Shown here: in pieces, positions 453 through 37,204 of the stretch
How positions within the stretch are numbered: the stretch's first letter is position 1
Layout: each line of letters opens with the position of its first letter
Assembly: GCA_036172245.1 (NCBI GenBank)
Contig: JAYWIR010000006.1
Span: forward strand, 124,001 to 188,000
Direction: 5' to 3'
Source: Raillietiella orientalis
Taxonomy: Eukaryota
Length of the DNA stretch: 64,000 nucleotides
Made by a program: the position numbers and the translations under genes
The notes under the pieces: model-generated
Told to the model about the DNA's origin: nothing
Databases searched by the model: none
What the model saw: only the letters and a program-made list of their open reading frames with translations

Positions 453-514
453 AAAACCAAGGACCAAAGCGACCCCCGAAAAAAGGCTAAAGCTGAAGTA
501 TCGGGTGTACCTAT

Positions 515-3208
515 ATGGAACTAGGAACTGGAAGTATGACGCTAAACTTGCTCGTAGAGGCCGCGGGACAAGGAGCGAACGTTAGGTCCGGCCATGGTCT
601 GAACTCCGGGATCCATGGTGCTACTAAACTAAAGGAACAAGAGGCAGCGCAAATGTCTGTCATTGTTTCAGGAGTGAAATGGACAGAAGAAGATGAGTCG
701 TTATACCATGAAGTCAAGAAACTCATGGAACAGACATACATGAATATCGACTCGAGGGCAGACGATTTAAACGAACATAGCGCCCTAATTACAGTAAAGT
801 TCTTGAAGAAATTGCCAGGAGGTGATAAGATCTGTCTTAAAAACCACGGACAGACTGCCTCAGAGTTGGAAGACTACATCAGGGACGTGTGTAAATATGC
901 TCTAGGAGATAAAAGGCTGATCCTAGACAAAAAGAAATTTATAAACACTCGTACGCAACAGAAACCGACAGAACCGTATTCAACACTCTTAAGTGAAATG
1001 CTTTGTCGGGAAAATTGTGATAGGTTTATGGACAGGATGGACGAAAGTTTGGAAGGGGGTTGTATCCTGTTCAAACAGACACTAGAAAGGAATCGCAATA
1101 GATACATGTCAAGTACAGAAACATGGACGTTCAGGCACGAGAATCTCTTTCAACGGAAAAACAGACGGGAAGGAGAAAGGAGGAAAATGGTACATATGCC
1201 AGAAACAAGTATGGTTGCAACACCTACGGAGAGGAAACCTTGTATGATATATGAGGCAACTGAGAAAAAGAAAATCAAGGATAGTAGGCCTATGGCCTAT
1301 AAAAGACTAGTGACAGTGGAAGGGCAGCTGCCTGTTATTGAAGAAACACTAAACCGTGCGACGGAAGACAGAATGACGAAGGAAGATATAACGTTCAACG
1401 GCAACGTAACGGCACAAGTAAGGGAGTTGATTAAGGAGGCAAGTCGGAATGTAGATAGTGAATCTGAAGTAACACAGCTGGATCGTTCTGTACTATATGG
1501 GACATTAAATTGCTTTTTACAAGAGAAAGATTGCCTTGAGTTCCTAAATAGGAAGAAAACTCCCTTAGAGTTGATATGCCAACAGACAATGAATTCAGTG
1601 GGGAGACGAGATGGACTAGTCATCAAAGGAAGAGGTGCCGAGGCTAGAGAGTACAACGATAAGAAGGATCTAGTCAGTAGAGCAGCAAAGATAGCACGTG
1701 CCATCAATTGGAAGGCAAAAAGGATAATCGGATTTTTTACTATAAGAGAGACCAATAGGGCGTGGAAGCGGGCAGTCGCACTACAGATCCTAAAGATATG
1801 GCAAGTTACAGAGTGTGCCAAGGCGGGGGGTAATTATCAAGATTTGTTCTTCCAGCCGACAGAGGGAGGTTCGGCAAAAAAGAAACAGCTAGTGTCCAAC
1901 ATGATCGAACTGGTCAAACTGTGGGCCAGTGTCAAAAAATGCAACGACATAGAAACCAACAGAGTCGAGGAAATGCTAGAAGCATCACACACAGGAAGGT
2001 TTGTGGAGAAGTTAGTAGTAAAAGAAGAGGCAGAGAATAGCAAACAGGCCTGTCAGAGTTTTATTAAGCTTATGCTATCAACCCATGAGGTTGCCTTCTG
2101 GCAGAAGAAAGTTTGTGTTTACTGTCTATTCCGGGAGCTAAATCCAGAAGCCCAGCTCAATGAGTGTGAAATAGAACAAATCGGGATTAACATAGATGGA
2201 TATGCCGCAAATATAGCTAGGAAGCATAACAAGGAACAACATGCTCTAAACGGAAACATTGATCGCGAGGGTGTTGTTAAAGATCTTAAAGAGAAGTACT
2301 GGGACAGCCCGGTAAACGGGTGGCATCGAATGTCAAGAGAACAGGCCAGATATCAACGTGCCTGTAGAGAAGCTGAAACGATCGCTGTGGTCATGGGAGA
2401 TCATATGAGAAGAGAGTACATTGTCAACAGCAGTACGGTCCACCAACAAATGTATCCTGTTGAGAAAATACGTACAGCCGAGGTCTTTGCAGTGGATGAA
2501 GAGGAATGTAAAGTATTCATTACTGCAGATTATTTGATGGATCATAACAAAAAATTGGTTGCTGAGGGTAAACCAATGGTGAGCAAGGAGGAGCTGGAAC
2601 GGCATTTGAGCATGGAAAAATACAAGATAGAAAGTAGAGATCGTGATAGTTTAATAAAAACCAACGCCTCGACTATAAAAGCACTGATTAAAGAGCGCAA
2701 TGGGCATAGGTTTAGTAAGTTGCGCAAGAAGCTGGAAGAACGTGCGCATTGGATAGGGGTAGGGCAGGTTACAACATTGGAACATGGGACTCTGTGTTTG
2801 AACAATCAAGGGAAGATGGTTAGAGTGGCGATATCAGGAGCAGATACAAGTGATATCATTATAAACGATGCTCGATCTCACAATATTTGGACTAAGTTGA
2901 GTGGCACACCGATGAAAGCAGGTGCAATCCTATCTGGAATGGCTGGAGAAAAACATGATTGGAGGACATTAGGATTGAAGGCCGCACTCTACGATATGCA
3001 AAAAGATGAAAGTTGGACAGAACCTGCGGGTTCAGACTATATCTTGAGCACTGGGGTAGACCGGCATTCAATAGTAATCAATCGTGTGGGGAGCTCCCCG
3101 TATAGTGCAATAGCATTAGACCTAGGGGCGATGTCAACTTACTTAGCCCGTAAGGGATGTATTCCGGTAAACGTAGGCACAGTGGAAAATCCGGAAATTA
3201 ACAACTAG
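515..3208 (+). CDS. Intact intronless 897-aa ORF, N-terminal part of a putative endogenous viral element (EVE1), family unassigned
   Basis: Long intronless A/G-rich ORF in a genome whose genes have many small introns; no TE or host domain recognised; flanked by LINE fragments; colinear homologue at 10765-12205. Confidence 0.6.
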   Translation: MELGTGSMTLNLLVEAAGQGANVRSGHGLNSGIHGATKLKEQEAAQMSVIVSGVKWTEEDESLYHEVKKLMEQTYMNIDSRADDLNEHSALITVKFLKKLPGGDKICLKNHGQTASELEDYIRDVCKYALGDKRLILDKKKFINTRTQQKPTEPYSTLLSEMLCRENCDRFMDRMDESLEGGCILFKQTLERNRNRYMSSTETWTFRHENLFQRKNRREGERRKMVHMPETSMVATPTERKPCMIYEATEKKKIKDSRPMAYKRLVTVEGQLPVIEETLNRATEDRMTKEDITFNGNVTAQVRELIKEASRNVDSESEVTQLDRSVLYGTLNCFLQEKDCLEFLNRKKTPLELICQQTMNSVGRRDGLVIKGRGAEAREYNDKKDLVSRAAKIARAINWKAKRIIGFFTIRETNRAWKRAVALQILKIWQVTECAKAGGNYQDLFFQPTEGGSAKKKQLVSNMIELVKLWASVKKCNDIETNRVEEMLEASHTGRFVEKLVVKEEAENSKQACQSFIKLMLSTHEVAFWQKKVCVYCLFRELNPEAQLNECEIEQIGINIDGYAANIARKHNKEQHALNGNIDREGVVKDLKEKYWDSPVNGWHRMSREQARYQRACREAETIAVVMGDHMRREYIVNSSTVHQQMYPVEKIRTAEVFAVDEEECKVFITADYLMDHNKKLVAEGKPMVSKEELERHLSMEKYKIESRDRDSLIKTNASTIKALIKERNGHRFSKLRKKLEERAHWIGVGQVTTLEHGTLCLNNQGKMVRVAISGADTSDIIINDARSHNIWTKLSGTPMKAGAILSGMAGEKHDWRTLGLKAALYDMQKDESWTEPAGSDYILSTGVDRHSIVINRVGSSPYSAIALDLGAMSTYLARKGCIPVNVGTVENPEINN

Positions 3209-4860
3209 TATTTAGAGGATACTAGCACTGCAATTATAGTGCTGGATGATAGGTCAGTGCTTACGCCAGTAACACTTGCCCTATGGATACTAGTCCACCT
3301 ACATTATCCTCTAATTGACACATATGACATTTACATCGTAGCTGTAGGAGGAATGAAAGACGGTGATGGATTTGAGGGAGAGGTGAAGAAGGAAGAAATC
3401 TTATACAGACGTACCTCTTCTCTAGTGGATATAGAGTCATGAGCAATAAACTTGGTGTTAGTGACCACAGATAAGGTCGGACACCTGAGAACGATCGCTG
3501 GGACAGATATTCCAATCACTGTGGGTGAACGATATCATAATGAGCTAGAGCCTACTATGGCATTTGACCCGCAACAGATGTTACGAAGGGCGTTAGATCC
3601 CGTTTATAGGTATAAGGGTAAATTGACAAACTTATTAGACATTTATCTGCGGCCGAGGATGGCCTCAAGGATGAACTGGGGAGAAATTGAACACTTGGCG
3701 GGAGTACTGACAGTTCGGTACATACCCCGTGAGGAGTTGGGAATCGATAAGGAAGGAAATTACGAGTATAGAACTATTGTGGATCAAGATGGCAAGAACA
3801 TCAAGGAAGTAGAGAATGAGACGAACTGCAGGCTCCACATACTGAAATATGCAGCATATGGACATGATGATAGTGTCAATGCTATTGACCAGGCCTTTGT
3901 CAGCAGGTCAACAGCAAAAAGGGCACCAGCTGTCATACTGGGCTGCTGGAACAATGTGACAGAACTAGCAGTCATGTGTGGACTAGCAGACTATATGACT
4001 TTTAATTCAGAGACGCATCAGACTGTCTGTAACTACCTGGATGTATCATCAGCTGATAAGGTATTCAGGACTCGTTACTTGAGACAGATAATAGAAGGGA
4101 AAGAGTCAACAGCAACGAACGATGAGCTGTCAACAGTTAGGAACAATGTAAATGCAGAGCACGGATGGGACTTGCTAGTGCATGCAGTAGAATGGGGGAC
4201 TACGACCCTGGAACAACTATTACAATATGTAGTTGGGGGGGAAGTGTGAGATGGCAATGGACAATGTGGAGACACCATGAACAGGTGGTCAGTTTGACCG
4301 GGATTAGTAGTCTAAGCCATCGAAGGGACAATATAACGTCGGGCACTATTACTCCCGCCTGTGAAGTGAAACTAGGATTGGGGGTGGAAGACTGGGATTA
4401 CCTCCGAGTCCATAAGAAGTCAGCGACGATAGAGGGTACGCACGATTGCTGCAAAGAATCGACAGTTATCGTGCCAGACATAAGATAACACGGATGAATA
4501 TCATCAGTCGGGCGGAGGATAAGAGGTGCGCTACTACGCTAGAATTAACGTGTCGGCGGAAGCTCACCTATGCAACAGGTTACTGTCAAAAGTATTGTGA
4601 CTCTGATAAGAAACCCATCACCTGGGGGGTAGGAGTGAGTCGAATATCTAGGAACTGGGAGGATCTGGTAATGGCTCAGACAGTTATAAACGTAAACCTA
4701 AGTGAACTACTCCAGAGACGAAACCTAAGTTGGGAACTGGTATACACAACAGGTGAAAGGTTAGCAGTCGCTAGCAACTATCAAGATGGAGTGTGGAAAC
4801 CTCTGGGTTTTCAATTAAGGCAGGTGAGGACCAGGGTGGATATGAAAGACAAGACGGAAG
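3209..4860 (+). pseudogene. Disrupted continuation of the EVE1 reading frame (original ORF about 1400+ codons)
   Basis: ORFs 3239-3442 and 3452-4249 are in the same frame as 515-3208, separated by single stops; then frameshifts (G run near 4234-4241 and near 4480) into ORFs 4165-4488 and 4446-; same composition until the LINE 3'UTR at about 4860. Confidence 0.65.
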
Positions 4861-5403
4861 GGGGAAGAAGGGTGGGGAAAAGCAGAAAAAAAAACAAAAA
4901 AAGAAAAACGCCTGGAGGAACAATGTTTTTTGGGAGGGGAAGGAAGGGAAGGGATCACGGTACGCCGTGGGAAGGCCTCTGCATCCGGTTTTGAATACAA
5001 GTGCTGGCAGAATTTTACTTAGTCGGTGCCAACGGGAAGCCTACTCTATGGAGATGACTGCCCAGTGGATGGCATTCCGACTCCTGCGGCCTCTTCTTGA
5101 CGCGGTCTACTTGTCCAAAATTCCGCGTAAGCAGTAGAGAACTGCAACACACGCAGTGCCTGGAAGGGAGTCTCGCATCAGGAGGAGACGAAAAAGGTTT
5201 TTAGGGTCGCCCGCCGGAACGTTTGGGATCGACGAGAGTCGACCCCACATCTGGCGGAGGGCAACGCACTCGATTATTAAGTGGGGGAAGGTCTCCCTTT
5301 CCCCACACTCTGCACAGTGGACATCCATACTCCCTGAAGTCCAGTGGAAGAGGTGTGCTCTGCAAAGGAGTCCCCAGTGGAGCACTAGCAGAGCCGTCTC
5401 TGG
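4861..5403 (-). mobile_element. LINE 3' end (copy A): zf-RVT C-terminus plus truncated 3'UTR fused to EVE1
   Basis: LVLHWGL...CAECGERETFPHLIIEC zinc motif, then GTGATCCCTTCCC and a pyrimidine tract as in the other 3'UTR copies. Confidence 0.85.
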
Positions 5404-8006
5404 GAAGCTCAAATGGCGGAAGTCACCGAGGGAGGACGGCCTGCCCACGGAGTTTTTTCAATGCTTCGCGGCGGAGCTTGCCCCCCTGGTGCAGCGGCTA
5501 ACGCTGCTGATCCGGGAGGCAGGCAACGTTCCCGCCTCCTTCCGATCGGCACGGATGCGTCTTCTCCCGAAGGGAGGAGACTCACGGAACCTCAGCAATT
5601 GGCGTCCGATCACCGTTTCAAACGCGGACGCCAAGCTGCTTGCGAAGCTATGGTCGGAACGAATAGGGCGGATGGCGCAAAGCTTCATCAGCCCGGAACA
5701 GACATACGCTGTTCCCGGGGGAAGCATGGACGCCAACCTGCTCTTCGCGAACACCTGGTTCGGGTTCCAGCGGTGTAGATTAAATGAAAAGAATAAGATC
5801 GGCACCCCGAGTTGCGGGACGTCCGCTGGTGGTTTGCGAGATGGTCGGGAGCTCGATGGGGCCCTCGCGGTCGCAGTCGATCTGCGAAAAGCATTTGACT
5901 GCGTTGACCAAGAGCTCCTGCTGGAGCTAATGGAGCGCCTGGGCTTCCCGGCCTCCTTATTAGCCTTTCTGCGCTCTTGCTTGCGCGACTCGCTGACCAA
6001 TATTTCTTTCAGAGGAAGAAACGTGTTCGGTGTGCCGGTGCGCCGCGGGATACGGCAAGGTGACAGCTTGAGCCCCTTGCTTTTCAGCACCTACTTCGAG
6101 CTGGTGCTGAGGGCATACAGGGAGACTCTTGGTCACCTGCCGCGCGTGTGCCCAGGTACACCGGCCGTGGCGTCTTATGCGGACGATCTTTTGCTGCTGC
6201 TCCCCATGTCCACCCCGGCGTCGGCGGTCGAAAACTTTTTCGAGCTGCTGCGTCGCGGGACAGGGCTGGAGGTGAACAGAGCGAAGTCGTCCGTGGTTGC
6301 AGCTGGTTCATCACGGGCAGGGCAGCCGGACTGGTTTAGCTTGAGGATCCCCACAGTACCGTACTTTAAGTACCTTGGTGTGCCGTTGGGAAACTATTCC
6401 CCTGCGAAAGCGTGGTCTAGCTGCCTCCAAAAGGCCGAGAGAGCGATCGGCCCGTTCCTGGATGGCAAGTTTTTTTGCCGGAACGGGCCGTGGTGTGGAA
6501 CACGTTCGTGGCCCCCCTTTTTCGCCCCTTGCTTTTTGTTTGCCCTCCACCCTGCGGTGTCAGAAAATGGACGAAGGACCTCCTCAGAATTGCCCTTTGG
6601 GGCAGAGGTAGGCCCCGAGTCCGTTTGAAGGACTTATGTGCCCCTGGTCGCGATGGAGGCCTCGGCCTCCTCACGCTGGAGCGGCTGGAACTGCAACTGC
6701 AGTTCAGGACTATAGCTCTAGTAGCGAAGCTATGGAGCACCAGCTGGTGCGAGCCTGCACGACGCCTGGTTCAGCGAGCTAGCGGCTGCGCGGGACTGTC
6801 TACCTTCCTAGCGCGCCGCAAACGCCGGTACCTGTTCCACTGCGGACTGGCACTTCGGCGAGTGGCGAAGCTGACCAGAACGAACACCTGGATCTCCTGT
6901 CGGCCCGCGAACAGTACTTCCTGGTTGCAGGAAAGCCTTCACACGTGGGCCCAGATCGAGGAAACGAGCCCGGAGTTGCGGCAGCGAATGCTGCTCTCCT
7001 ATCACAAGAGCCGCTCGCTGCAGGACATCATTGTGCAGCCCACCTTGAGCGCATGGGCTGAGAGGACCTCCCTTGCCACGGCTCCGTTCCACCTTAGGGA
7101 GCACCTGGGCAGTAGCCATCCGGCGAAATGGGAAGTCCGGTGTAGTATCTCTAGAAGAGAGAGAGAGCAAGGTGGTTGGACCACGGGCCAGTTGAGAGAC
7201 GCTGCGACCCCAAGTGCCCCACCAAAGGGACTATTGCACTGGGGCGATCTGCTGAGCATCCCCATGGATGTACTCGAGTGGCCCCCGGTGCTGAAGACTA
7301 CCCGGGCCCTCCCCCCGAAGTGGCAGGAGTCGGCGTTCCTGGTGTTGCACTGGGGACTCCCCAGCAACGCCCGCCGTTCGCACTGGATGAGGGGGGCTGT
7401 GGACCCAAATTGTGTCAGGTGCGGGGAACGGGAAACCCTCCCGCACCTGCTTCTTGACTGTGTTGCCCTCCGGCCTCTGTGGTTGCGTTTCGCAACGGCC
7501 CTAGGAGCACCCACGATCAACCCTAGAGACGTTCTGACGCGCCTCTTTGTGCGTGACGCCCTTCGGCCTGCCGCAGCCCTTGCAGCCCTCTGCTGCCTAC
7601 GAGGTATTGTGGCGGCCTGGAGCACCGCCACTGGTGGACTGAACGACAGGGACATCATCTGCTCCGCCCTGCGTTTCCTAAGGACGGCAGCCAGATGGTC
7701 CCATTTGGGGCATATGCGGACCGAACTTGCCGGCATCCTGGAAAGGATATAGAGGACGACTCCAGCGGAATGTGATCCCTTCCCCAACTCCTCCCTGCTG
7801 CTTTTGTAAATAGTGTTTTCTTTTTGTTTTTATTTGTCCTTTTCCCCCCCGCTGCCGAGTCGAACTCGCCAGCCTGCGTGCTAGCTACTCGGCAATTTCA
7901 GACTCTTTATTAGAACATTTTTTAGGACGCTGTAGGGGCAATAGCCCTACACTTGCTTGTTTGTTTTTACTAAAAAATAAACGCCCCGGCGCACCCGGGT
8001 GTAAAA
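5404..8006 (+). mobile_element. 5'-truncated L1/Tx1-clade LINE (copy B): reverse transcriptase, zf-RVT and complete 3'UTR, one frameshift near 6470
   Basis: RT motifs SPREDG, LLPKGGD..NWRPI, DLRKAFD, GIRQGDSLSPLLF, YADD, KYLG; CVRCGERETLPHLLLDC; stop at 7752; flanked by the 16-bp direct repeat GCAGAGCCGTCTCTGG (5388-5403 and 8007-8022). Confidence 0.95.
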
Positions 8007-8022
8007 GCAGAGCCGTCTCTGG

Positions 8023-8431
8023 AAGTGGAATGCATCGAGGAGAGGACATAAAAGCCGGAATACCATTCATTGGGCAGTCCTCTCTATTGAGAAGGCATGC
8101 CGATGGCGCCTGTTATGGACAATGCCGGCACTTGCCCGCATCCGAAACCGGATGCAGAGGACTCCTCCCGGAGACCAATGATTCCATCCCTTCCCTCCCC
8201 ACCCAATAAAACTTTTTCCCCCCGGCGTTTTTCTTTTTTTTTTTTTGGTTTTCCCGCTCCCTTCGCCCGTGGAGTACCTCACCGACCTGTGGGTTGGTAA
8301 GGACAAGTGCAAAACTCTGTCAGAACCATGTGTTCTGACTGAAAAACACACAAAAACAAACAAACCAGACCTTATTGTAAAGTTTATGCTGAACTTTAAT
8401 AATAAAAGCCCCGGCTACTCCGGGTGAAAAA
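8023..8431 (+). mobile_element. LINE 3' terminus (copy C)
   Basis: Homologous to the reverse complement of about 4861-5115; ends AATAAAAGCCCCGGCTACTCCGGGTGAAAAA. Confidence 0.8.
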
Positions 8432-9360
8432 TTAAAGGAAGAACCCTCCTCGCTGCTGCGCTGGCCCTCCTAAGGGGAGATTCGGACTGCGATGTTGCGG
8501 CGAGGTGGTAGGTGGACATAAAAATCTACGAAAGGGAGAAGATAGGAGTGTGGAAGACGGGCCAGCTGACTGAAGCTGCGATCCCGAGTACACATCCCCG
8601 TGGACTTCTGCGCTGGGGCGCGCTGCTCGATGTTCCGGTGGAACATCTGAAGTGGCCCCCGGTGCTAATGAACACCTCCACCCTCCCCTTGAAATGGCAG
8701 GAGTCCGCGCTACTGATGCTGCACTGGGGACTCCCGTGCAACTCCCGCCGCCACCATCGGACCTGGTGAACCCAAATTTTGTTAGGTGTGAGGAACGGAA
8801 GTCCCTCCCCCACCTCCTTGGGGATTGTGTTGCCCTTCGGCCCCTTTGGTTCCGCTTTGCCGCGGCCAGCAGAATCCCCTGCGGCAACCCCAGGGACGCT
8901 TTGAAAGTCCTCCTCGTTGCAGACGCCCTCCGGCCTGTGGCCTCCTTGGCAGCCCTGTGCTGCGTACGCGGGATCCTCACCGCTTGGCGCAAGGCAACGG
9001 AATGACTCCGCGATAAGGGTGCTATTCAGTGCGCCTCCTGATTCCAGGAGAGGGCGACGCGATGACCCCACCTGGATCCAGAAATACAGGAAGAGCAATG
9101 CAGAGAGAGCTTGCCGGCATCCTCCTAAGGATGCAACGGCGCCAGCAGCAACAGTGATCCCTTCTCGCACTCTTCCAAGTTTTTTTTTTTTTTTGTTTGT
9201 TCCCTCTCCTCCTTGCTGCCGCGGTGGACCGTACCGGTCTGCGAACCAGTGACCCAGCAGGTTCAGTTCATCTAGAGCGTGGCTAGACCACTGGTTCAGG
9301 CACAGATTCTCCAAATGTTTTATTCGAAAGAATAAACGCCCCGGTGCACCCGGGTTAGAA
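8432..9360 (+). mobile_element. LINE 3' fragment (copy D): zf-RVT region plus 3'UTR
   Basis: WKTGQL..LLRWG..WQESALLMLHWGLP and RCEERKSLPHLLGDC closely match copy B; ends AATAAACGCCCCGGTGCACCCGGG. Confidence 0.88.
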
Positions 9361-9848
9361 TCGACAGAACAGGTGTTCGTGGAGGAACGCTGGTCCGGCA
9401 ATTCCTGCATCCAAGGAGGCTGGTGCACGAGGTGTGAGCGTGCGTGCACACCTCGTTCACCAGCCTCTCCCAGGATGGCAGTGAACATTGAAGTCCCCGC
9501 CAACGAGGTGAGTCATGTTAAGGGCGGAGTCGGTGAGCCAGCGGCTTTGCAGGCTATCGAGAAACTAGAGTGCTCCCGCGTGACACCCTCCGCCACTCGG
9601 CGCGTACACGTTCGTAACGACAAGGTCGATGGATTCGGACTTGAAAACAAATTGGCCCAGTCGATCTTCCCCGTGAAAACGGATTGTTTGTTCGGATATT
9701 CTTGTTTGTTCTCTCTCCATCCCCCTCCGCTGCCGAAGAGAGTCTCGTCAGTCTGCGTACGGGCCAGCAGGTCCACTGTTTGATTGGCCGTACTGGAGCC
9801 TCCTATCAGGTGGAATTTTTAAATGAATGCACCGAATTGACCGGGTGC
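9361..9848 (+). mobile_element. Divergent LINE 3' fragment (copy E)
   Basis: Pyrimidine tract, GCTGCCG...GTCTGCGTAC...CCAGCAG motif and CCGGGTG terminus shared with the other 3'UTRs. Confidence 0.6.
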
Positions 9849-10764
9849 TAACGTCGAAACGGAGGTTCCGCACCGCCCCATGCGGAGTTGCATTCCTATC
9901 CTGGACAAGGAACGCAACTCCGCAAGTGTTTGCAGAGTCTTGCCGCCAGTGAGGCGTCCCGCCTGCGCGCTCTTCCAGATCGGTCACCTACTGTTCGGTG
10001 ATGTTGTGTATCTCCTGCAGCAGCACCAGATCGAATTCGCGCAAGACGTTGGCTACCAACCTCCTCTTCTCAGCGTCGCGCACCCCGTTGACGTTCCAAC
10101 AGGCTACGCGAACGCGACGAGAGGATGCGAGTTCGCGCATTGCTGCTGCGGATATGGCCGCGCTTTCCTCGACCCGTTCGGCGAGGGGTCAGCCGGGAGC
10201 ACGAGACAGTGGGGAGCCGAATCGCTCCCGTCTTCTGACATGCAGCACGCGGCTAGCTCTTGGGTGTCGAGGAGCATTGTCTTGATCTCCGAAAAGCATC
10301 GGCCTCGTGACTGGAAGGCTTTGGCTTGCGCGCAGACCCAGGTTGCCCCAGGACTTGGAGCACTTTCGAGCTGCCATAGGACTCCATCTCGGAGTCTGAA
10401 TGCTGTGCGTGAGACAGGTGTTTCGCCTGTCGGTTTTTTTGCTAGTCCAGCTTTCAGCTGCCACCACAAAAACCGTAGCAGTCCTTGGAGGTTCCTTGGT
10501 TGGACACGAGAGCCTCTAGTGTCTTCTGGATTTTTGCTAGTGGCTCCCGTTTCTTGATCGCGGCCAGGATCAGCCTCGCCACATATGCCTGTTGCGCCTA
10601 CTTACCGGGAGGTGCGGACAAAGTGGCGGGATTCACAGGAGTCCCTCGAGGTTTCGCAGCCTTCCCTGTGGCTTGACTCGCCGTGGACGGCTTACCTATC
10701 GCGGACTGAGGGGTGCGCGACCCCTCGAAAGCGGCACCGGGCGATTTGCTGCGATTTGAGAGTT
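9849..10764 (-). mobile_element. LINE ORF1 C-terminal region and start of ORF2 endonuclease
   Basis: Minus-strand translation RVACWNVNGVRD..FDLVLLQEIH..CGVAFLV (APE N-terminal motifs). Confidence 0.85.
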
Positions 10765-12205
10765 GCATGAGATGGATGTTCTTCCTCAATCGAAGGCTTC
10801 CTTGAACCCGTATTGGATCAAGAAGCTTAAGGGAATCTGCGCCCCCTGGGTAGGCGAAATAGCAGAGGCTGAGCTAGCACATCTGAGCTCAGCGCCTAAA
10901 GTTTCGGGTTTCGAAGTTGCCTCCCGAGAATTCCGAAAAGTAATTCTAGACAAATGAGGTCACCAACTTTGGTGTGCTCGAGTTCTAAACGCTTTAGTTC
11001 CGGTCTTGAAGCACGCTAGGCTCGAGTTGGCGGTTGGTGAACCGAACCCCTTAAATGATCCGGAGGTTAGTGAAGGTAAGAGAGGGCGGGCTGATGAGGG
11101 CCTTATAACCCTTCTGAAGCCCCCCTCTGCAGGGTGCACCACTGATATTGCCAAGGATGTAGACCCCGTCTGAGTCACCCAGGGCAGTGAAGGTGACTTT
11201 CAATCTGCCGGAGGAGCCGGCAAGGTATTTTGGGAAGTAGATGAGGCGGAGAGGACCCGTTAGGAGCTTCCATTAACATAAGGAAGGGTAACATAGACAG
11301 CACCTCCAATTTGTACACGGCTTTCGAGGACCACCTCACCACCCGCTGTGCGGTGCTTAGCTTGGATAAGGTCTCCCAGGTTGGACATCTGACAAAAGGG
11401 ATCCCCGACTCATTGTGAGTCGGGTTCAACTCCCGGGTAAGGGAAGGTGCCACCTACTCGAGGAAGACATGCAGCACTGCGGAGGCCGTGATCATCGAGG
11501 CCTCGAGCAGGTAGACAGCTGTGCGGGCACTCAGCCGACTGCCGGGCAGACTACGCGCCCAGACAAACCCAAGGAGTCCCTGTGGCAGAGGGCAACGAAG
11601 TTCGCCCGGGCGATAGGGGGTGACTTCAAACGGGTCTACTCCTTTATAAATAAGGGTCAGTCGGAGGGACGTTTCGTGATAGCCGTGCGCCGTGCACTAC
11701 TGGCCCATGGACAACGTCGCCGTCTGAGGAGAGCAGATGGCTGTCAGACGTAACGGACTCCCGCTCGTAGCACCGGAAAGGTTATCGTCTCTCGGTTGCT
11801 ATCGACCATTATCGCGTGGGCGAAACGATCATCGCCAAAGGATCTGGGAACCCAGGGGAGTACTGGGGGGGAGGGCGAGGGCGGCCCTGTTCCTGACGAT
11901 ATACCTGGCTCCCGGTTTCTTTGTTTATCTCCTCACCATTGTGGCTCCGTTACTGTGAACTCACCCAGTTATGCCACTGGTGTGTGTGTCAGCGGACTCT
12001 GGGCCAGCTAAATCCGACTCCCCTTTCTATTCCCCCAGTAGGAGTTCCCTCTTACCAAAACTACACAGACGTGAGCAGCGCCATCCTCTATAGGGAGTGT
12101 GTAGTTGGAGTATAGAGGACGGAGATCGGTATTTGCATTGAACCACCGGCATTCCGATTCTGAGCAGAGACAGACGCGCATGGTTCTGCAGCCTTCACCT
12201 GGATG
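10765..12205 (+). pseudogene. Degraded putative endogenous viral element (EVE2), homologous to the N-terminal half of EVE1
   Basis: Colinear peptide matches to the 897-aa ORF (IKKLKGIC/LKKLPGGDKIC; RKVILDK/KRLILDK; SLWQRATKFARAI..KRVYSF/DLVSRAAKIARAI..KRIIGF; IVSRLLSTIIAWA/LVSNMIELVKLWA); several stops and frameshifts. Confidence 0.65.
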
Positions 12206-13523
12206 TCTCCCGGAAGCTGCGTCGCGCAGGACTTCTTCACGCAGTGCGGCGCGGCTTTTTGCCATTCTGGGCGGATGCTTGAAGTTTTGTGTCCCCTGAA
12301 ACGCCCGCGAGATCTTTTTTGGGCGTGCCACTTTGCGGCGGAGCGGCGTTTCCACCAACAACGCGGGAGAAGTTTTCGGCGCGTGCGGCGAAGACGCGGG
12401 GAGATTGCTAGCCCACCGTTTCCGCTTAAGCTCGACGCACTCATTGATCGAGTGGTCAAGCATCTTACAATAGTGGCAACTGCACGTTGGGCACTTCCGG
12501 GGACGGTGGCACTCTTTTCCGCAGTTGCCGCATGCCGATCGCTGGCCGACAAACCGAAGAAACACGACCGCGTCACCAAGCTGGAGCTGCGAAGGCAGTA
12601 GCCTCCGATCCAGCATGGTAACGCGCGGTGTGGCGAGTTTGCTATGGGGGGACGGGACTCTTTTTATCGGGTTCGGGCGCCTCCACAACGCGTACACTGT
12701 GGCGAACGCCTCCAGCGGGCGTTATCAGTTCGCGGTCCGATATCCCTTGCCGGATGTTGGAGTTGGACCACGAAGGACAGGTTCATGCCTGCGGGAACGA
12801 CCTCCTTTCCCCGGATCTTCAGCGGGGTTCGGAGCAGACGCTGGAAGAGGGCTGCGTCTTTGCAGTGAACCTCCCAGTCTCCGGGCACGCTCACCGACTT
12901 TATGGCCAGGAGGTCGTTCTCGCTTGTCATCCGGTTGCGCCGGGGCGTTTTATTCTTTCGAACAAACATTTACAAGATCAGTGGCTGGACCCATGGTCCA
13001 GCCACGCCTTAGATATTGGCAGTCTGCCGGGTCACCGGTGCGCAGACCGGTGCGGTCCACCTTGGCAGCAGAGGAGAGGAGGCAAAAACAAAAAAAAAAA
13101 AAATAACTGGGGAGGGCACGGGAAGGGATCACAGTCTGCTGGCTTACGAGGTCGTGCTCGCGGATACCGACGCATTTCAGTTCGCTCCATAGCTGGTCGC
13201 CCGCCCTGTGGGAAAACAAGGCACTTACCTTGTAGCAGAGCGCGAACTTGTAGCCTTGAGCTACGTACGCTCGCAGCTTTGCCTCGTCGGGGGTCGCGCC
13301 GTTTGCCACCGCGGCCTTAGCAACGGCGGCAAAACTTCTCTCCGGTGGCTAGGCACAATTGGCAGAGTCCTGCATTCATTCCGAAAAAGGTCCTGCTAGG
13401 CAGGCTGCTTCCTCCACCTCTACCCCCATCATGTGCTGCGTTTTCGCCATTTTCTTCCGAAATAGGCACCACACACACAAAAAAGGAACAGCAGAAAAAT
13501 TCCCTAGACGGAGCGCAACAATG
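12206..13523 (-). mobile_element. LINE 5'UTR and ORF1 with zinc knuckles, interrupted by a solo 3'UTR (copy F, about 12925-13140)
   Basis: LLPSQLQLG..RFVGQRSACGNCGKECHRPRKC..CHYCKMLDHSINEC (two CCHC knuckles, Tx1/L1 ORF1 type); 12925-13140 is homologous to 9150-9356 in reverse. Confidence 0.85.
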
Positions 13524-14165
13524 CACATCCGAGCAGTAGGAAGGAGGTGGCTGCACGGGATATGGATGCAAATTGCTACAGGTGAGGCGAGGAGACCCTG
13601 CTGCACCTTCTGCTGGATTGAGCCGGACGAGTCAGAAGCCGGCTTCTGACTCCTTCGGGATCAATTCTCGACGATCCTGGAGATCCCGGGTGCGACCCCA
13701 AAGACATTGTACGAAACCTCTTCATGCGTCTCGTTCTTCCGCCAGCAGCGTCCCTAGCATTTCCCAGCTGCGAACGCGGAATTGTGGCAGTCGGGAAGAA
13801 GAGGCCGGAATGACAGGGGCGCCATTCATTGGGCAAAAAAAATTTTAAACACCGCCTCCAGATGGCCCCAGCTGGGAGAAAAAACAACAGATATAGTCAG
13901 CATCCCGCACAGGATGCAAAGGACGACCCGCGGCGAAATGTGGTCCCTTCCCTGGCAGCCCCCCTTCCCAGAAAACTCTTCCTCCCTTTGTTTATTTTTC
14001 GGTTTTTCCTTTCTCGTCGCTGCGGAAACGCACCCCGCCGGTTTCCGTACCGGTGGTGACAAGTTCTTCGCATGTGCTAGAACGAAGTGCCATACTATTA
14101 TGTTGTAATTGACTCGACTTTTATTGTTTTAACAGTATATGCCGCATCAAACCTGGGTGAAAAAT
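13524..14165 (+). mobile_element. LINE 3' fragment (copy G)
   Basis: Degenerate zf-RVT (LHGIWMQ..CCTFC), GTGGTCCCTTCCC after the coding end, conserved hairpin at about 14037-14056, CTGGGTGAAAAA terminus. Confidence 0.7.
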
Positions 14166-14520
14166 TGCGCGGGACCCGAGTGCCCTGGTCGTCCAGCAAG
14201 CTGGCTGACCCGGATTCCAGGGTTGCCTCTCAGCTCCCACTCTATACACTGCAAGCCGCTGCACTTTGGGTGTTCTGCTATAACGGCGGACACGCGGGTA
14301 CTCCTGCTCGTTACCAACACCGCCGAAGCAGGCAAGTAGGCGGTCCATGGGGAACTGCTGGCGGAACTTTCGGACAGAGCGCTTGAAGCTGTCCCAATTT
14401 TCGGGTTCCTGCAGCCTGAAAACCTGCAGGACCTCGCGGAGGTGTTCCGCGGCTCCCGGGAGGTTCATACAGTCCCTGGAAGACTCCGCACATCCGATGA
14501 AGAACCCCGGTCGCGCGGCC
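14166..14520 (-). mobile_element. LINE ORF2 EN-RT linker fragment
   Basis: RPGFF..WDSFKRSVRKF resembles the conserved post-EN linker of L1/Tx1 ORF2; GC-rich like the other LINE pieces. Confidence 0.6.
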
Positions 14521-14862
14521 AAACTTCCACAAAAATGCAGGGTACTGTGGATCCTTCTCTACCGACGAAAGCCTATACTACGAAAAACTAATATGGTTGC
14601 GTGCTCACATATCCACAGCCGTTCCTAAACTAGATCCTTACGCTCTGGTAAACCCGAAGAATGGATAATCAGCACCACATAAAGTAATGGAATAAAAGAG
14701 AGGGTTTCCCTCCTCTCAATTATTCACTACACTGGCGCAGGCAGCGTAGAGGCGAAGCATTCCATTGAGTAAGCTATATGCGAGATATACATAGCGATAG
14801 CACGACTGCTCATACGTAGCTGTAAGAAATTACCGAATAGTGAGATGTAGCTTTTTCTTGCA
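14521..14862 (+). pseudogene. Possible 3' end of a partitivirus-like RdRp segment (EVE3a)
   Basis: Disrupted frame NFHKNAGYCGSFSTDESLYYEKLIWLRAH..KRGFPSSQLF followed by a UTR sharing an ATTACC-N-GTGAGAYG motif with the 3'UTR of the adjacent capsid block; no catalytic motif present. Confidence 0.35.
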
Positions 14863-14885
14863 GGTAGAAAATACAGTTATCCAAA

Positions 14886-15772
14886 ATGGAAACTGCCGCA
14901 GCAACCAGCACACTAAAACGCCTACGACCCGACGGTACAGCGGATAAGACGGATGACCCGGTTGTCATTAGTTAGTACAACCGCCAGAGTCACCTCGCAC
15001 AGCGCCCCCAAGCCCATGCACGGAACTGACTTTACGGAGCGAGCTGCCCGAAACGTCACCGGTCCTCACCCATACGTCAACCGCAGGAAATAATACATCT
15101 CTGAGCAGACGCGAAGTCATTCTTCGCTGAATTGTATGATACTCTCACCGGCGTCATTTACGAAGGGGACGGTATCATTAGCGACCTCATAGATACGGGA
15201 ACTTTCCTCCAAGTGAGCCGCGAACTATACATCATGCGACTACAATTAGTTTACCAAAAGTTCACCGGACTTAGACTCCTAGGTAAGATCCCCTTCTAAC
15301 CGAAGTTCAAGATGCCTATGTGCATGGCCATAGTGATAAACAGTTATGGTGTGACAACCATCAAGGCCGCACAGTAGTGTACCCCAAACCGGAGAGTGAC
15401 CTCCAAAACAAGGATGAAGAAAGTGATCTTCATCCCACAGAAAGAGACACCGTGGGATTCTCGCGACTAATCCGATCGCTCGAAGGTCGGAATGTCATTC
15501 GAACAGGAATATTGAGTTCCTCGATGAATGGCACTCCTGCAGGGCTAATCGGAGCGCTCCAGATGGGACAGCTCTCTACACCCGCGAACATCGCAAGTTC
15601 GACGGTGATAGCAGCTTGTACCACTGCAAACTTTGCCCCAATAGACGCATTCCTAAGTGCGCTAATGGTCAACCAGCAGAGCGCAGTCCTCTTCGGCGGT
15701 GCTATTCAATGCATTAGCTCCATGATCAGTGGAGTCGGAGCCCTACGATCGGACTTCATTATGAACGCGTGA
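14886..15772 (+). pseudogene. Partitivirus-like capsid protein EVE (EVE3b), about 295 codons with stops and frameshifts
   Basis: Reconstructed FAELYDTL..FLQVSRELYIMRLQLVYQKFTGLRLLGKIPF..MPMCMAIVINSYG..VYPKPE..FSRLIRSLEGRNVIRTGILSS..GT..PIDAFLSA..GVGALRSDF matches my recollection of arthropod partiti-like capsids; intronless. Confidence 0.65.
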
Positions 15773-15899
15773 ATAAACCAGTGCATTCATCAACACTCAG
15801 TGATTACCTGAGTTGTGAGACGGCAAGTGAAGGAAATTTCTTCGCGACAATACGTTCCAAGTGGCCATCTCCCACACACTTTCGTACACGCTTCGGCTG

Positions 15900-18800
15900 T
15901 GCATATACTAAAGTTCTACGCAAAGAAAACGTGAACTTTGCAAAACACGCTTTCGCGTATTCTTATTCATCCAACAACCTAATCCCATCAAAGTCCTCAG
16001 AATCAAAATGTGGCAAAGTGGATATCCACGATATCTTCACAAGGGTGTTCGACAATCAGCATATAACGCTCTGCCCGGCATTTATACATCGAGTGCGGCT
16101 CCTGCAGTATAAACCTGCAACTGTACCTCTAAGTGAATGCCCTGCGCCTTTGATGGTCTCATGTTGGCATTCCTCTGAGCAAGCACTCGGACGGTTCCCT
16201 ACCAATGGTTAATTCGTATCCATGAAGACGCGATTCGTGCTTTTCATTCAGATTTGTTTGCGGACTCTACGCCTTCCATCAGAATCTTGCTCCGCTTCTT
16301 GGAACGCACCTGCCCGTGCTTGAGCCGTCGCTACACAATGCAGTGCCGTCTTTCAGCATGTCACAATCACAAGAGACCTAACTTTCACACATTTTCCATG
16401 GTGCTTCAACAAATACACCCTAATAATACTTACCTTTTTGTTACTGGTGAAAAGTTTAGAACAAAGCAACATACGACAAACTCCCGTCGGAAAAACTCAA
16501 ATCGGACCCGCAAGCAGATTGCAGCACGAATTGCTCACCCCTCTCTCGAAACCACAACCGCTTCCACCACCTTGAGCACGAGATACACTGGGAAGCTCAG
16601 TACACAAAAAACTAAAAATCACTTTCAGAGCACGAAAACGAACACAATACATCCCGGTAAACGAATCCAAAGTAAAGAAAATACATCCTCTAAAGATAAA
16701 AGTACAAAAAAGCATAGAAGGCATTGTGTGACTGCTTGGCTTGAATTTACTTACGGACGACATAAAGAATGTCTGTCACTTCAACCATAAATACAATGGC
16801 TGTTAAACACTATGACATACCACATACCACGTTTGACCAAGTGAAAGTCTGACACAACAATGTTGAGCACAGATAGACTGGGAATTTCTTACATTAACAT
16901 TTGTCCTACACATAATTAAATGTGAACTTTGCTTACTTAATGCTAGAACTTATGATGGGATCATTTCATTCATGTTTGCATTTTTGAGTCACTAGTAACA
17001 GGGGTAACAATGCATTTCATAATGAACATATTTTTGAAACAAGTTTGCTTTGAAACACATTAATGCCTGTTTCAATTTCAAATCATGTTCTTTGTTATTC
17101 TTGCATCTTCCATACAAAGAAAACAGAAAACACCTATGGGAAGAAAATCAAGGTCAACAACAAAACATTTCGCATTGACAACCACTTTCTGATAATATTG
17201 ACTATAGAAGCATATCCGAATTCTGCATTGGATGCCCACTGCTCACATCAATGAACACAAAATTACAAGCTGTAATAAAGAACTTTCTAATGTGAACAAT
17301 AGTTGAACAGTTCACAGGCTGCATAAACAACTGTATTTGACTAGGAAGCCCATATACCAAATTAAATACAACATGTGGCTAACTGAATGAATAAATATGC
17401 CCACAATGGAAAAGGTCAACATGTACCTTGTATTCCAAATGGTGTAAATTCCAACAAAGTAAATCAGATGTAAATTTCAGATTCACATATGGAAGCAGCA
17501 TCACAACATCCCATTCATAACAATTGCATTAACAGAAACATAACAGTCTATTCAACAAGACTTCACATGAGAACTTTTCTAAGAATGAGAAACCTTTAAC
17601 AATATATAGCCTTAGCAGTCATGATTCTGTACAACACAGCTTTTAATGAACTTTGCTCATCACAACAGGAGCAATAGCACATGAAAACTGAAAAACAACA
17701 AATGACTAATATGTCTGAGGGAGATGAGTCTAGCCAACACCTGGTGATGTGCTGTAGGTCACTCTAGTGGCTAACACCAACAGACTGGCAACAACAGAGT
17801 ATTTGTGTCTCCAAATACTCGAAAGGCACTAGGAAGGTCACATAGGGTCTTACATATTCAGAGGTAGCAACTTCTTCAACTTCAAGAGCCTTAGCAACCT
17901 CTTTGTGGCAACACATTCAATCTTATTTAACGGAACTCAGAATGGCTATGGAAACATTCCTCCTCAAAGTCAAAGAGTACACCTCACATTCAACACATGT
18001 TCAACAAGACCACCAGCCAACCCACTGTAAATTATATGATTTTCAATCGACTTCTTGATAAAAAAAACACAAACTTAATCTTCAAGATCTGAAATTCACG
18101 AATGTTAACCTACAAAATTGCCTCCATCATTAAAAACTGATTCAGATTTGAATGCAAAAACAATTTCGCACACATAATCATAGAGACTGTCTGAAACCCT
18201 CAAGTGGATTCATTTAGTTGCTTTTGTTCTCGATAGAAAAAACAATATATACTGAAGCTTCAAATCAGAAGGCTATCTAATGCATATGACATTCAACGAA
18301 AACTCAGTTAGTTTGTTAGAATTCAAAGTATATTGCCATGCAGCTGCTTCTTCTTAAAAGCGGTTTTACTATGTGTCAGCAAATGACCTCTGTGTTTGCA
18401 AAAATACAAATTCAAATACTGTACACATTAACCCAATGATTTTACAAAATTGCCAACAATACAGTAATTAAAAAATGATAGCCATAAGAGTGAATTCTGG
18501 AATACAAAACATATTTCATAACCAGATGTTTCCAAAAATCACAATGGCATTCGATGTTGTACAGCTATTGATGAAACAAAAGTCTCAGTTCTTGAAATCA
18601 AACATTCAGTGCATTTGCATTGCCAAAAACATGAACTTCAACAATGTAGATCAGGTGTAAATTTCAGGTTCATATATGAGAAGCATCACAACATACCATT
18701 CAAAACAAGTGCATTGACAGAAATACAAACTCATAGTCATCTGCTCAATGAGATTTCATGATAGAACATTTCTGAGAATGGGAAACCTTAAAAAACATAG

Positions 18801-33380: not shown

Positions 33381-35330
33381 ATGCACAGAGCAGGTGGTAA
33401 ACATGAAGGCCTGGTGGTTAGCAAAGCTCCACCAAAAGGTACAAGATTAGTTATGTAGACAGAGTATTGGAGGCTGTCCATCACTAGATGGCAATGATAT
33501 TGGGATGGCTCATCTAACCTTGGAATTTAGAGTCTACTTGGTGAACCAATCTACAGGACAGCATAGTCAGGAAAGTCGACAGATATGGTTTTGGTTTCAG
33601 TTAGATACACCAGAAAATTCATGGGCCTTGCTAGCCCAACAGTTCTTTCAGGAACTTATTGCACCAAATGATTTTCCCAGAGGTTACACTTCCTCACATT
33701 TGTGTCCAATTTTATGATTTTCATTACAGACTATGTTGGTTTCTTAACCAGGATGATGACTCTGCTTCGGTATCCTTTTACTTCTATGTGTAGAGTGGAA
33801 GTTAAGTTGACCCAGTTAGGCCCAGCACAGAAACTGCCCTCAGCCCCTAGGCCTAGTGAGTATATTGGCAGCCAGCAGGCAGTTAATCAAGATTGCAGCA
33901 CTGCACTGATTCACTGTAAAGGTTGGAGGGGTGTGCTGTGAAAAATAGGTGGGGAAGGGAAGGACTTGCAACACTTAACTAAGCACCCATTAGTTCTAAT
34001 TCTGTTTCTGATGTCAATACCAAGTCTGATGATATTTTTGTTTTAGCTACACCTCAACTGTCTGAATCATCAGTCCTTGAAATCTTAGAATCAGCATATC
34101 CTTCACCTCTCTCCTTGGTTGAATTAGGACGTCAATTATCAGTCCCACCAGAGGAAGTAGCACCATTTGTCAAGTGTCTTCAGGATAAAGGACTTTTATG
34201 TTGTATTGGAGGCAATGCTTTTACTCGTGTCGTCCAAGATTCCACTCAGGTACTTAATGGGAGTGCCTGTGTGGGAGATGAGCATGATATGTTTAGGTAG
34301 TCAAGCAGATGCCAAGTGTGGCAACTGCCAACCAACCTACCATTGCCATTATCACTGCAGGTTACTGTGAGAAGTTAGCTGTGGATGCTATGATGGATAG
34401 TCGTCAGACATTTGTTCGTTATACCACTGTAGGCAAGTGTTATGTTCTCTCTTCTGGCCATTACTTCATGTGGTGTCAGGTGAATCGAATGTGTATACAC
34501 TAGGAACAATAGGCTGCCATCATGTAGTGTCGACCAAACTTCCTGCTGTTGTAGGCAGCCGGTCTCGGGGTGCCCGTATTGCTGCTGGCAATGGTACTAC
34601 CCGTTTGCTAGGCACTTTCCAGCAAGTGGAGTTTGTATTTGTGATTGGAGTGTGTGGTGGAGTGCCCCAAGTAGCTGATTATAATCGCCATGTGCGATTA
34701 GGCGATGTAGTTGTATCCCATGCTAACCATGGGCAGCGACACCATGTATACTTGGCTTGTCGAGAGCTACATCAACTAGACAATGGCATGTGGCAGTTCG
34801 AGACATGCTCCTGGGCACCAACACAACCCCTTCTTCAGGAAGTAGCTAGTCATCTAGCAGCCAATCCCACTATGCCTTGGCTGCAACATTTGCAAGATGG
34901 AGCAAAGCGACTGCAACAAGCTGACATAGACTTTCAGCGTCCTCCAAAAGGGACAGACAAGTTGTTACTATCCATCGGTGGAGATGATGTTATCGAGTTG
35001 TCACACCCGTCATGTCCTGAGGGTGTGGATCCTGTTAGAGCAGAGGGTATGCCAAAGATCCATTTAGGATTGTTGGCTGGTGGAAAAGACATCATTAACC
35101 ATGAAACAGCACGAATGGAGTTGGCACACAAAATGGGCATTCTCGCATTTGATGCGGATTTCGAAGAAGTCATTAATGGAATCTGCGGTAGTTGCAAGAA
35201 CCATTACATAATCATTCACGGAGTCGCCGATTACCGAGATGGAACTGTTGGACGTGAATGGCAGCCGTATGCTGCATTGGCAGCAGCCAGCTTCATGAAG
35301 ACGATCATATGCGAGCTGGATCCGATTTAA
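33381..35330 (+). CDS. Conserved uncharacterised protein with a predicted winged-helix-like region and a C-terminal purine/uridine nucleoside phosphorylase (PNP_UDP_1)-like domain; exons 33381-33438, 33488-33682, 33730-33855, 34047-34249, 34297-34432, 34480-35330
   Basis: Frame-consistent splicing; PTIAIITAGYCEKLAVDAM, YTLGTIGCHHVVSTKLP, FVIGVCGGVP..VRLGDVVVS, GVADY..WQPYAALAAASF; start codon uncertain. Confidence 0.88.
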
Positions 35331-36184
35331 CATGTATCGTTATGAGAAGAGTTCTGTTATGTCGTTAAAACGTTTGACGTAATATTTGCCGAATTAAGTG
35401 GGATGATTCAAGCGTTTTTTTTTTTTTTCCCCCCCCCCCTCCCTCCCTATGGAACCGAATGATTATTTTTCTGTTAACCAAATACACGCATGTTATATCA
35501 TTTATTATTGTATTCCCTAAATTCCAGTTCAGAACATGGAATGGAAAGCAGCCTATGCTTCCTGTTTTCCGATTACTGAACCACCATCGATTCAAAAAGT
35601 GCTTACATCACTAAGCGACAAGCAGCGTGCGCCACACTTGGTGCTGTGCGCCTATTGCTATTGTTTGTATACAAGACGCCATGTTGTTAGGTGGGGTCGT
35701 ACCTAAATTTCCAATATAAAATTTTCGTGCCCTCGTTTCATATCTACACAATATGCATGTGTTGGAAAAAAAAAAAAATGTGCGAAAAATCTTATTTGCT
35801 CACAATCGGTTGCAAATAAGGTGGGGGGGAGGGATGGGTAGGAAGAGAAAAGAAAATTATTATTATTATTATTATTTTTTTCCTCCCCCCCTTTTTTCCC
35901 CCCCTTTCTTATCGCTTAGCATTTTCCAATTCACCGGGAAGCTTTTCAACGAATGTTCGATGCCTACCCGAATGTGAAGGGAGAATTTTCCGAATTTCAC
36001 CCCCCCGAAACGCAGGGACTACTTTCAGCGCGCGCAGTAAGACGAAAGGGAAAAAAAAAAAAAAAAGATACCCGCGTTAAATAACGACTCTCGCAACAAC
36101 GATTCCAGTCAACGTGAAAACTTTCGCAAGTGTGCGTCCGCCGTGTATGGTTGCATGAGTTCAATACTTGGAAGGTCGCCCGTA

Positions 36185-37204
36185 ATGAGCGCTGACGTCT
36201 GTAACCGTGTCGCATTGAGTGTATCTCCGCGAGCAGGCGCAGAGCAGCCGCCTCTTTGCGAGAAGGCGTGTTTCGCCGCCGAGAGTGCCGAGGTGTGTGC
36301 CACCGCCCTGGACGTCCTGGATAGTGGCATCTCGAACGGTGAAGGCACGTCCACCGGGGTGATCGAGCACCGTGCTAGCAAGCGACGCCGCAAGCGCAAG
36401 CACAAGAAGAAGTGGAAGCCATACGACAAGATGACCTGGGACGAGCGTCAGGAACTGGCCAGGAGGGAAGCGCGCCGGTCGGATCGGCTCCACGCGAGGA
36501 TGCTGGCCAAGGGCAAACCCGTGGCCCCGTACAACACGACCGAGTTCCTCATGGAGGAGCACAGGTCCGAGTACGAGGACGACGTCCTGGAGCAGCTGAA
36601 CTTCGACCACGCCGTCCCGTCGATGGAAGATTCGGACGGGGACTCGTACTACTACGCAGCGTCGGACGAAGAGGAGTTCTTGGCGGAGCAGTTTCGGTCG
36701 GAGTACCAGATCTTGTACGCGGAGCGACTGGAAACTCTGTCCAAGGATGAGCTGGTCGAAGAGTACTTGCAGCTGGAAGAACGCATAGAAGAGATGGATC
36801 GCCTGTTGATGCGCAGATCCCCTGAAACGCAGTCGGACGATTCGGACGGCGAGATGATCCCCGGGGAGATGCGCATGGACCCGGAGACTGCGGAAAAGAT
36901 ACGCATCCTCATCCAAGAAATCGAGAAGCTGACCGAAGAAAACAATCTGTTGAAGGAACGCGCCCCTCCCTGGTGGAACCACCAAGTCATCAACGGTGAC
37001 GACAGTGAAAGTGATACTTCGTACTGCAGCAAGAGCAACTGCAGCTGTGCTTACTGTAGTGGTGGCAACGACAGCCACGATCCCACTAGTGATTCCATCC
37101 TTAGTAGTAATTGCTCGACCTATGCTGATCGGAACCATAGTACGAGCGTCCAAGCAAGTAATGATGATCTCAACGGAGTTGCGATTCCGGATGCGAATAA
37201 GTGA
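36185..37204 (+). CDS. HEXIM: HEXIM P-TEFb inhibitor (7SK-binding), single coding exon
   Basis: Basic tract KRRRKRKHKKKWKPY..TWDER, PVAPYNTTEFLM motif, acidic region, LSKDELVEEYLQLE coiled coil. Confidence 0.93.
   Translation: MSADVCNRVALSVSPRAGAEQPPLCEKACFAAESAEVCATALDVLDSGISNGEGTSTGVIEHRASKRRRKRKHKKKWKPYDKMTWDERQELARREARRSDRLHARMLAKGKPVAPYNTTEFLMEEHRSEYEDDVLEQLNFDHAVPSMEDSDGDSYYYAASDEEEFLAEQFRSEYQILYAERLETLSKDELVEEYLQLEERIEEMDRLLMRRSPETQSDDSDGEMIPGEMRMDPETAEKIRILIQEIEKLTEENNLLKERAPPWWNHQVINGDDSESDTSYCSKSNCSCAYCSGGNDSHDPTSDSILSSNCSTYADRNHSTSVQASNDDLNGVAIPDANK

Follow-up and report, generated by a model that had tools for sequence, protein, structure and literature searches.

The window, meaning the whole 64 kb stretch of Raillietiella orientalis DNA analysed here, contains two plus-strand regions of broken reading frames, a long one at 497–4892 (hereafter EVE1) and a far more decayed one within 10765–12205. 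Is the second region related to the first, to which family do the two belong, and do they stem from one integration or from two? The first-pass annotation had taken them for members of an orphan and possibly undescribed virus protein family, integrated separately, the second of them inside a LINE ORF1.

EVE1 is the better preserved of the two. It had been described as an 897 aa protein, which is the length counted from the first ATG of its first open frame (497–3205, 903 codons). This frame is the front of a broken ORF1 copy of about 1450 codons that is interrupted by two stops and by one or more frameshifts. A profile HMM of 42 relatives from outside the window (described below) matches EVE1 in four pieces, which are colinear. 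The whole element and its pieces are

497–4892, plus strand: EVE1, a nearly full toti-like ORF1, interrupted by stops at 3206 and at 3440 and changing frame between 4247 and 4416
497–3205, plus strand: first piece matched by the profile of 42 relatives, E = 3e-89
3209–3439, plus strand: second piece matched by this profile, E = 1e-15
3443–4246, plus strand: third piece matched by this profile, E = 1e-46
4416–4991, plus strand, in a different frame: fourth piece matched by this profile, E = 6e-11

In tblastn the relatives run in one frame straight across the stop at 3206 to about 4240. The homology thus passes both stops and extends to about 4892. As EVE1 contains stops and frameshifts, selection has not maintained it intact from end to end. 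No polymerase remnant is found after EVE1 or elsewhere in the window (tblastn with nine toti-like polymerases, best E = 0.16). On the minus strand, a 5'-truncated part of a LINE endonuclease at 19–486 ends 10 bases before the start of EVE1, and a LINE 3' end at 4875–5457 (zf-RVT region and 3' UTR repeat) begins where the EVE1 homology ceases.

The family was identified through its outside members. A phmmer search with EVE1 against 1.84 billion representative sequences retrieves 42 proteins at E ≤ 0.001, most of which are 1400–1700 aa long. The best of these, P0001 (1476 aa, E = 1e-24), is 28% identical to EVE1 over 1053 aligned residues. A word-based homologue search gives nothing with EVE1 and P0001 itself only with the family profile, and no Pfam family is found on EVE1, on the 20 of the 42 relatives that were scanned or on four viral ORF1s. 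In IMG/VR, 12 viral contigs of 2.5–8 kb encode relatives. The ORF downstream carries an RdRP_4 domain in all nine cases scanned, on contigs of 6.6–8 kb (E = 1e-7 to 6e-16); these polymerases are those of the relatives and not of the window.

Among solved structures, one is matched by a profile of 18 long relatives: the capsid chain 9thi_A of Omono River virus (OmRV), with E = 4.6e-7. The match sits on the motif HN..H..NGN, which occurs twice in the OmRV protein. According to PMC7968656, cleavage at this motif in OmRV and IMNV releases the major capsid protein at its N-terminus, and pre-capsid peptides lie upstream of the site. A cleavage motif of the NKxMHxxNGN type is present once in each of the nine proteins checked, EVE1 and eight relatives. 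In EVE1 the single copy, HNKEQHALNGNI (HNKEQHALNGN-I), is located at aa 577–588 of the 903 aa frame.

The region following the motif was modelled with AlphaFold on the relative L001, which is Hubei toti-like virus 19, the nearest named relative; the resulting capsid fold is that of L001 rather than of the window's own broken gene. The model of L001 aa 566–1558 has a pLDDT of 76.6, and all nine of its Foldseek matches in the PDB at E ≤ 0.001 are capsids of Giardiavirus or OmRV (E = 2e-12 to 2e-9). The pre-capsid domain (L001:898–1695) was modelled with a pLDDT of 88 and corresponds to about 1350–2257 of the window, or EVE1 aa 285–587. Its sequence is found with 100% identity in an uncharacterised Hubei toti-like virus 19 protein, with further matches in Sanxia water strider virus 20, Hubei toti-like virus 18, Leptopilina boulardi toti-like virus and Solenopsis midden virus. 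No solved relative of this domain is found: the best Foldseek match has E = 1.4, and the best VIA-align match has Z = 4.8 and an r.m.s.d. of 5.0 for 105 aligned residues, values that do not imply a new fold. Just before the cleavage after Asn, the domain contains an invariant set consisting of C-x2-C, H, N, H and N-G-N. The model with invariant Cys and His residues beside a cut after Asn suggests, as an idea only, a self-processing module.

The family is the toti-like dsRNA virus ORF1 polyprotein, which comprises the pre-capsid peptides and the major capsid protein. Members of it have been named and capsid structures solved; Pfam alone is without a model. The proposal of an orphan, possibly undescribed family has therefore to be given up.

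The second region is much harder to detect. All five peptide strings that had been quoted for 10765–12205 do occur in its plus-strand frames. In tblastn, the 903 aa frame of EVE1 gives one weak match there (aa 328–488 with 11415–11855, 24.5% identity, E = 0.017), and none of the 42 relatives gives a match at E ≤ 0.01. The sequence is too diverged for tblastn at this threshold, so that its detection needs a profile or a frameshift-aware alignment. A frameshift-aware alignment with shuffled controls, as suggested in the first-pass annotation, was made with our own Smith–Waterman implementation (BLOSUM62, gap 11/1, frameshift 12). EVE1 aligned to 10500–12500 scores 67, a value reached by none of 200 protein shuffles (mean 38.7, s.d. 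4.3, maximum 56); 104 other real 2 kb windows from both strands of the same 64 kb reach at most 55. This alignment takes in both central motif pairs, KESLWQRATKFARAIGGDFKRVYSF and KVIVSRLLSTIIAWA. When EVE1 aa 285–500 is aligned to 11311–11860 alone the score is still 67, and none of 300 shuffles reaches it.

The ORF1 of the exogenous relative L001 gives a score of 112 over 11406–11989, with 62 of 180 residues identical and with five frameshifts and one in-frame stop in 584 nt. None of 100 shuffles comes up to this score (mean 41.5, s.d. 3.4, maximum 52); the maximum is 55 in 106 real windows and 50 in 14 GC-rich windows from the LINE nest described below. The profile HMM of the 42 relatives, which is built from outside relatives alone and holds no window sequence, matches the fragment 11370–11750 with E = 7e-9 among 2470 six-frame fragments, and a 54-sequence profile matches nucleotides 11529–11720 with E = 2.7e-9. 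As the outside-only profile contains nothing from the window, its match independently confirms family membership. The region is thus divided as follows.

11406–11989, plus strand: decayed toti-like ORF1 fragment in its supported extent (hereafter the block), corresponding to L001 aa 319–503 in the pre-capsid region
11529–11720, plus strand, frame 3: best-conserved core, with the family motif R-A-x2-A...R-x2-G-F...N-R-x-W-x2-A-V-A-R
11311–12016, plus strand: widest plausible extent, from an EVE1-guided alignment with a low frameshift penalty (score 83, EVE1 aa 285–550)
10765–11405, plus strand: left part of the originally proposed span, for which a viral origin is unsupported; N-terminal viral ORF1, LINE sequence or neither

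Fragments flanking the core are colinear with the 54-sequence profile but weak, the two downstream ones having E values of 50 and 13. Downstream of the core, the best Gumbel p values obtained with five relatives are 0.03–0.05, uncorrected. The block has no open frame, no cleavage motif and no capsid part; its homology stops at 11989–12016, about 30–50 codons short of the expected position of the cleavage motif. By its sequence, this stretch of about 0.6 kb at 11406–11989 (possibly 11311–12016) on the plus strand descends from the ORF1 of a toti-like dsRNA virus and is broken by frameshifts. Of that ORF1 it retains just the conserved domain before the capsid cleavage site, with neither capsid nor polymerase.

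The proposed relationship with EVE1 thus holds for the centre of 10765–12205. The three outer matches that had been quoted are at chance level, and the span is therefore too wide. The N-terminal pair (DVLPQ.../DDLNE..., 10774–10863) scores 29, which is reached by 37 of 1000 shuffles run inside a hand-picked box of 71 aa by 201 nt. EVE1 residues 1–284 aligned to 10500–11310 score 30, compared with a null mean of 31.4, and 201 of 300 shuffles do as well; in a second, unrestricted search upstream the figure is 82 of 100. When the N-terminal side is banded on the diagonal of the central match, its score is reached by 48 of 500 and by 77 of 500 shuffles. The C-terminal side (GQLNP) by itself scores 30, equalled by 129 of 300 shuffles.

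Further material to the left of the core was sought with other members of the family. The fragment 10760–10954 is absent from the matches of the 54-sequence profile at E ≤ 1000. Upstream of the core, P0001 alone among seven relatives tried gives a marginal match (11120–11223, score 55, 1 of 100 shuffles), and the motif concerned is not conserved among the relatives. In length, the 1.2 kb at 10189–11405 would suit a leader together with residues 1–318 of the viral ORF1, a weakly conserved part. This unassigned stretch could be the variable viral N-terminus: the length fits and nothing else indicates a viral origin. To the right, a banded, colinear match of EVE1 aa 868–890 to 12991–13059 (2 of 500 shuffles) was rejected. 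The DNA there is a 78% identical inverted copy of the LINE 3' end at 9141–9364, so that the colinear match is a coincidence.

That outer pairs lie at chance level and that a colinear-looking match proved to be a LINE 3' repeat is what would be seen if GC-rich junk frames resembled a long query protein by chance. For the block this explanation has a probability close to nil: profiles free of window sequence match it with E values of 3e-9 to 7e-9, and the L001 score exceeds that of every real window tested, those of the GC-rich LINE nest included.

Having the same family, the block and EVE1 could go back to a single insertion or to two. They lie 6.5 kb apart in the same orientation. They hold the same part of ORF1 and are therefore two copies rather than two pieces of one. 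Such an arrangement would follow from an old local duplication, in which one toti-like insertion was doubled and the left copy stayed nearly open, by selection or luck, while the right one decayed. At the nucleotide level there is no trace of this. As had been claimed, the similarity is confined to the protein level: the best blastn E between the block and EVE1 DNA is 2.9, and over the 46 best-matching codons the identity is 57 of 138 bases, with third positions at the random level of 11 in 46. The block is thus not a recent local duplicate of EVE1. It is also richer in GC, as noted before (0.586 for 11406–11989 versus 0.444 for EVE1). The exogenous relatives span 0.41–0.57, so that a different source virus could explain this gap. 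The density of breaks differs as well, with about 10 per kb in the block (six in 584 nt) versus under 1 per kb in EVE1; two stops and two frameshifts are counted in 3.3 kb of EVE1. The breaks in EVE1 themselves speak against a left copy selected to remain intact throughout.

Phylogeny does not decide the matter. When the unguided, single-frame core peptide is scored against 55 proteins, EVE1 (72) is the fifth-best partner, behind four outside relatives (L001, 93; L007, 92; P0013, 80; P0005, 74), which argues against a duplication. In a tree with the block read through under the guidance of L001, in which 38 of 56 rows were kept and 18 short rows dropped, the block stands beside L001 in a 97/95 clade. 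With the read-through guided by EVE1 it stands beside EVE1 with an SH-aLRT support of 99, as a duplication would have it, and with the unguided peptide its placement is unresolved. The AU test (LG+G4) does not reject a clade of block and EVE1 as sisters (p = 0.46). Two guides give two strongly supported partners, and hence it is the guide that decides the answer of the tree. A frameshift-corrected read-through inherits likeness to its guide, and trees of this kind are unfit to distinguish sister copies from independent origins.

Overall, we consider a local duplication unlikely. It is likely that the block goes back to an earlier integration of its own, by another virus of this family, with the phylogeny indecisive. 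Of the earlier claim that two relatives were integrated separately, the part that stands is that the block is a true relative without nucleotide similarity to EVE1; the two events themselves are likely rather than certain.

The DNA surrounding the block bears on how it arrived. The region from 5 to 14 kb is a nest of GC-rich LINE pieces with five LINE 3' ends. Its main features are

5138–7749, plus strand: LINE reverse transcriptase (RVT_1, E = 2.6e-21) and zf-RVT, from a different copy than the flanks of the block
8500–9364, plus strand: LINE 3' end
5409–4875, minus strand: LINE 3' end
13143–12920, minus strand: LINE 3' end
13562–13916, plus strand: LINE 3' end
9991–10188, minus strand: start of the AP-endonuclease domain of a LINE ORF2 (Exo_endo_phos, E = 2.3e-5, profile positions 3–41)
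12011–12721, minus strand: ORF of 237 codons with two C-x2-C-x4-H-x4-C patterns at aa 64 and 82 (CCHC ORF), abutting the block

One LINE 3' UTR is present in four copies (4875–4996, 8140–8261, 9141–9364 and 12920–13143) in both orientations. It contains a long T/A-rich tract and explains the inverted repeats of the region. A Pfam scan of 118 fragments of at least 60 aa (1–581 and 4774–16209, with 24 fragments inside EVE1 left out) and of 92 fragments of at least 105 aa (16–64 kb) finds only LINE domains, HEXIM and HTH_69. The HEXIM match (E = 1.6e-31) is a single-exon HEXIM homologue at 36041–37201 on the plus strand, an ordinary gene near the LINE nest. HTH_69 (E = 4e-8) is a winged-helix fragment at 33983–34297, also on the plus strand. 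The two matches mark the window as animal DNA.

The Exo_endo_phos match at 9991–10188 has 24.7 bits against a cut-off of 24.5. From this start, about 1.2 kb to the left of the block, the minus-strand endonuclease domain runs leftward to 9469. The zinc knuckles of the CCHC ORF and the endonuclease lie about 2.2 kb apart on the same strand, with the block inside the gap in antisense orientation. The CCHC ORF has no match in Pfam, in the ESM Atlas or in the homologue search. From its two zinc-knuckle patterns it may be read as the ORF1 of the antisense LINE. No reverse transcriptase that clearly belongs to this minus-strand copy was found in the window. The earlier placement of the block within a LINE ORF1 thus comes close: the CCHC ORF on the minus strand adjoins its right side, and the start of the endonuclease domain lies to its left. 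A second copy of this LINE, by which the junctions could be defined, was looked for in the window and not found.

The position of the block, antisense between the CCHC ORF and the endonuclease start of one strand, is also what would be expected if the viral piece were cargo of the LINE family, captured once between ORF1 and ORF2 by template switching and spread with the element afterwards. The GC content of the block (0.58–0.59) resembles that of the flanking LINE (0.58), in line with such a history. Within the 64 kb window the block and the CCHC ORF each occur once, despite several copies of the LINE 3' end, and a gap of this kind between knuckles and endonuclease would disrupt a working LINE. 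We therefore hold cargo of this type to be very unlikely.

In our preferred interpretation the block is a dead, non-coding endogenous viral element (EVE), which probably derives from a separate, older toti-like integration via a LINE. A LINE reverse transcriptase would have made a DNA copy of the viral RNA, and this DNA would have landed in, or become joined to, the antisense LINE between the CCHC ORF1 and the endonuclease. The block would now make no protein, and any present activity would, by analogy, lie in supplying small RNAs as part of a transposon-rich locus.

A more specific version of these events starts from the left junction of EVE1, the layout of which is one that a jump of a LINE reverse transcriptase to the minus strand of the virus would be expected to produce. 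Here the LINE nest would act as a virus trap: toti-like ORF1 would have been caught twice by the same route and would then have served as a small-RNA memory of the virus family. Each viral piece would lie antisense to a minus-strand LINE endonuclease region and start beside its 5' side, with junctions at 486|497 for EVE1 and at about 10188 for the block, the latter if the unassigned 1.2 kb is viral N-terminus. Such a layout would result if the LINE enzyme changed templates and continued at the 3' end of the viral minus strand. We rate this chain of events as a whole as quite unlikely.

The supposed orphan family is settled by these results. Both are remains of toti-like dsRNA viruses, which are a common and well-described source of EVEs, and together they attest to at least one germ-line infection by such viruses, probably to two. 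The current understanding of endogenous toti-like elements is unchanged by the block and EVE1. What the block does illustrate is that very decayed pre-capsid fragments escape tblastn and that profiles are needed to find them.

The survey in PMC10636211 counts 5686 toti-like endogenous elements across 593 of its screened arthropod species and reports that such integration took place several times independently per lineage. Like the known toti-like EVEs of animal genomes, the block is a broken-frame fragment of the capsid-side ORF beside retrotransposon sequence. It differs from them in consisting of the pre-capsid domain only, and not of the capsid or polymerase parts that are usually used for detection.

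Among exogenous viruses, the closest parallel is with the OmRV/IMNV-like toti-like viruses ('artiviruses'), which share with the family an ORF1 of about 1400–1700 aa, the H..NGN site, an ORF2 with RdRP_4 and the capsid fold. Only in the motif region is there sequence identity with OmRV (31 bits). A 2A-like NPGP site is present in none of the nine family proteins checked, whereas the account of OmRV and IMNV in PMC7968656 gives two.

The locus as a whole resembles the EVE–transposon clusters of Aedes, where more than one fragment of the same virus family is found, in a shared orientation, amid truncated retrotransposons. In the Aedes clusters the transposons are mainly LTR elements, whereas here they are LINEs. 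The Aedes loci are described in PMC7161354, PMC6797480 and bioRxiv 10.1101/127498 as piRNA clusters. By analogy with these mosquito EVE clusters, a small-RNA role of the whole nest is possible.
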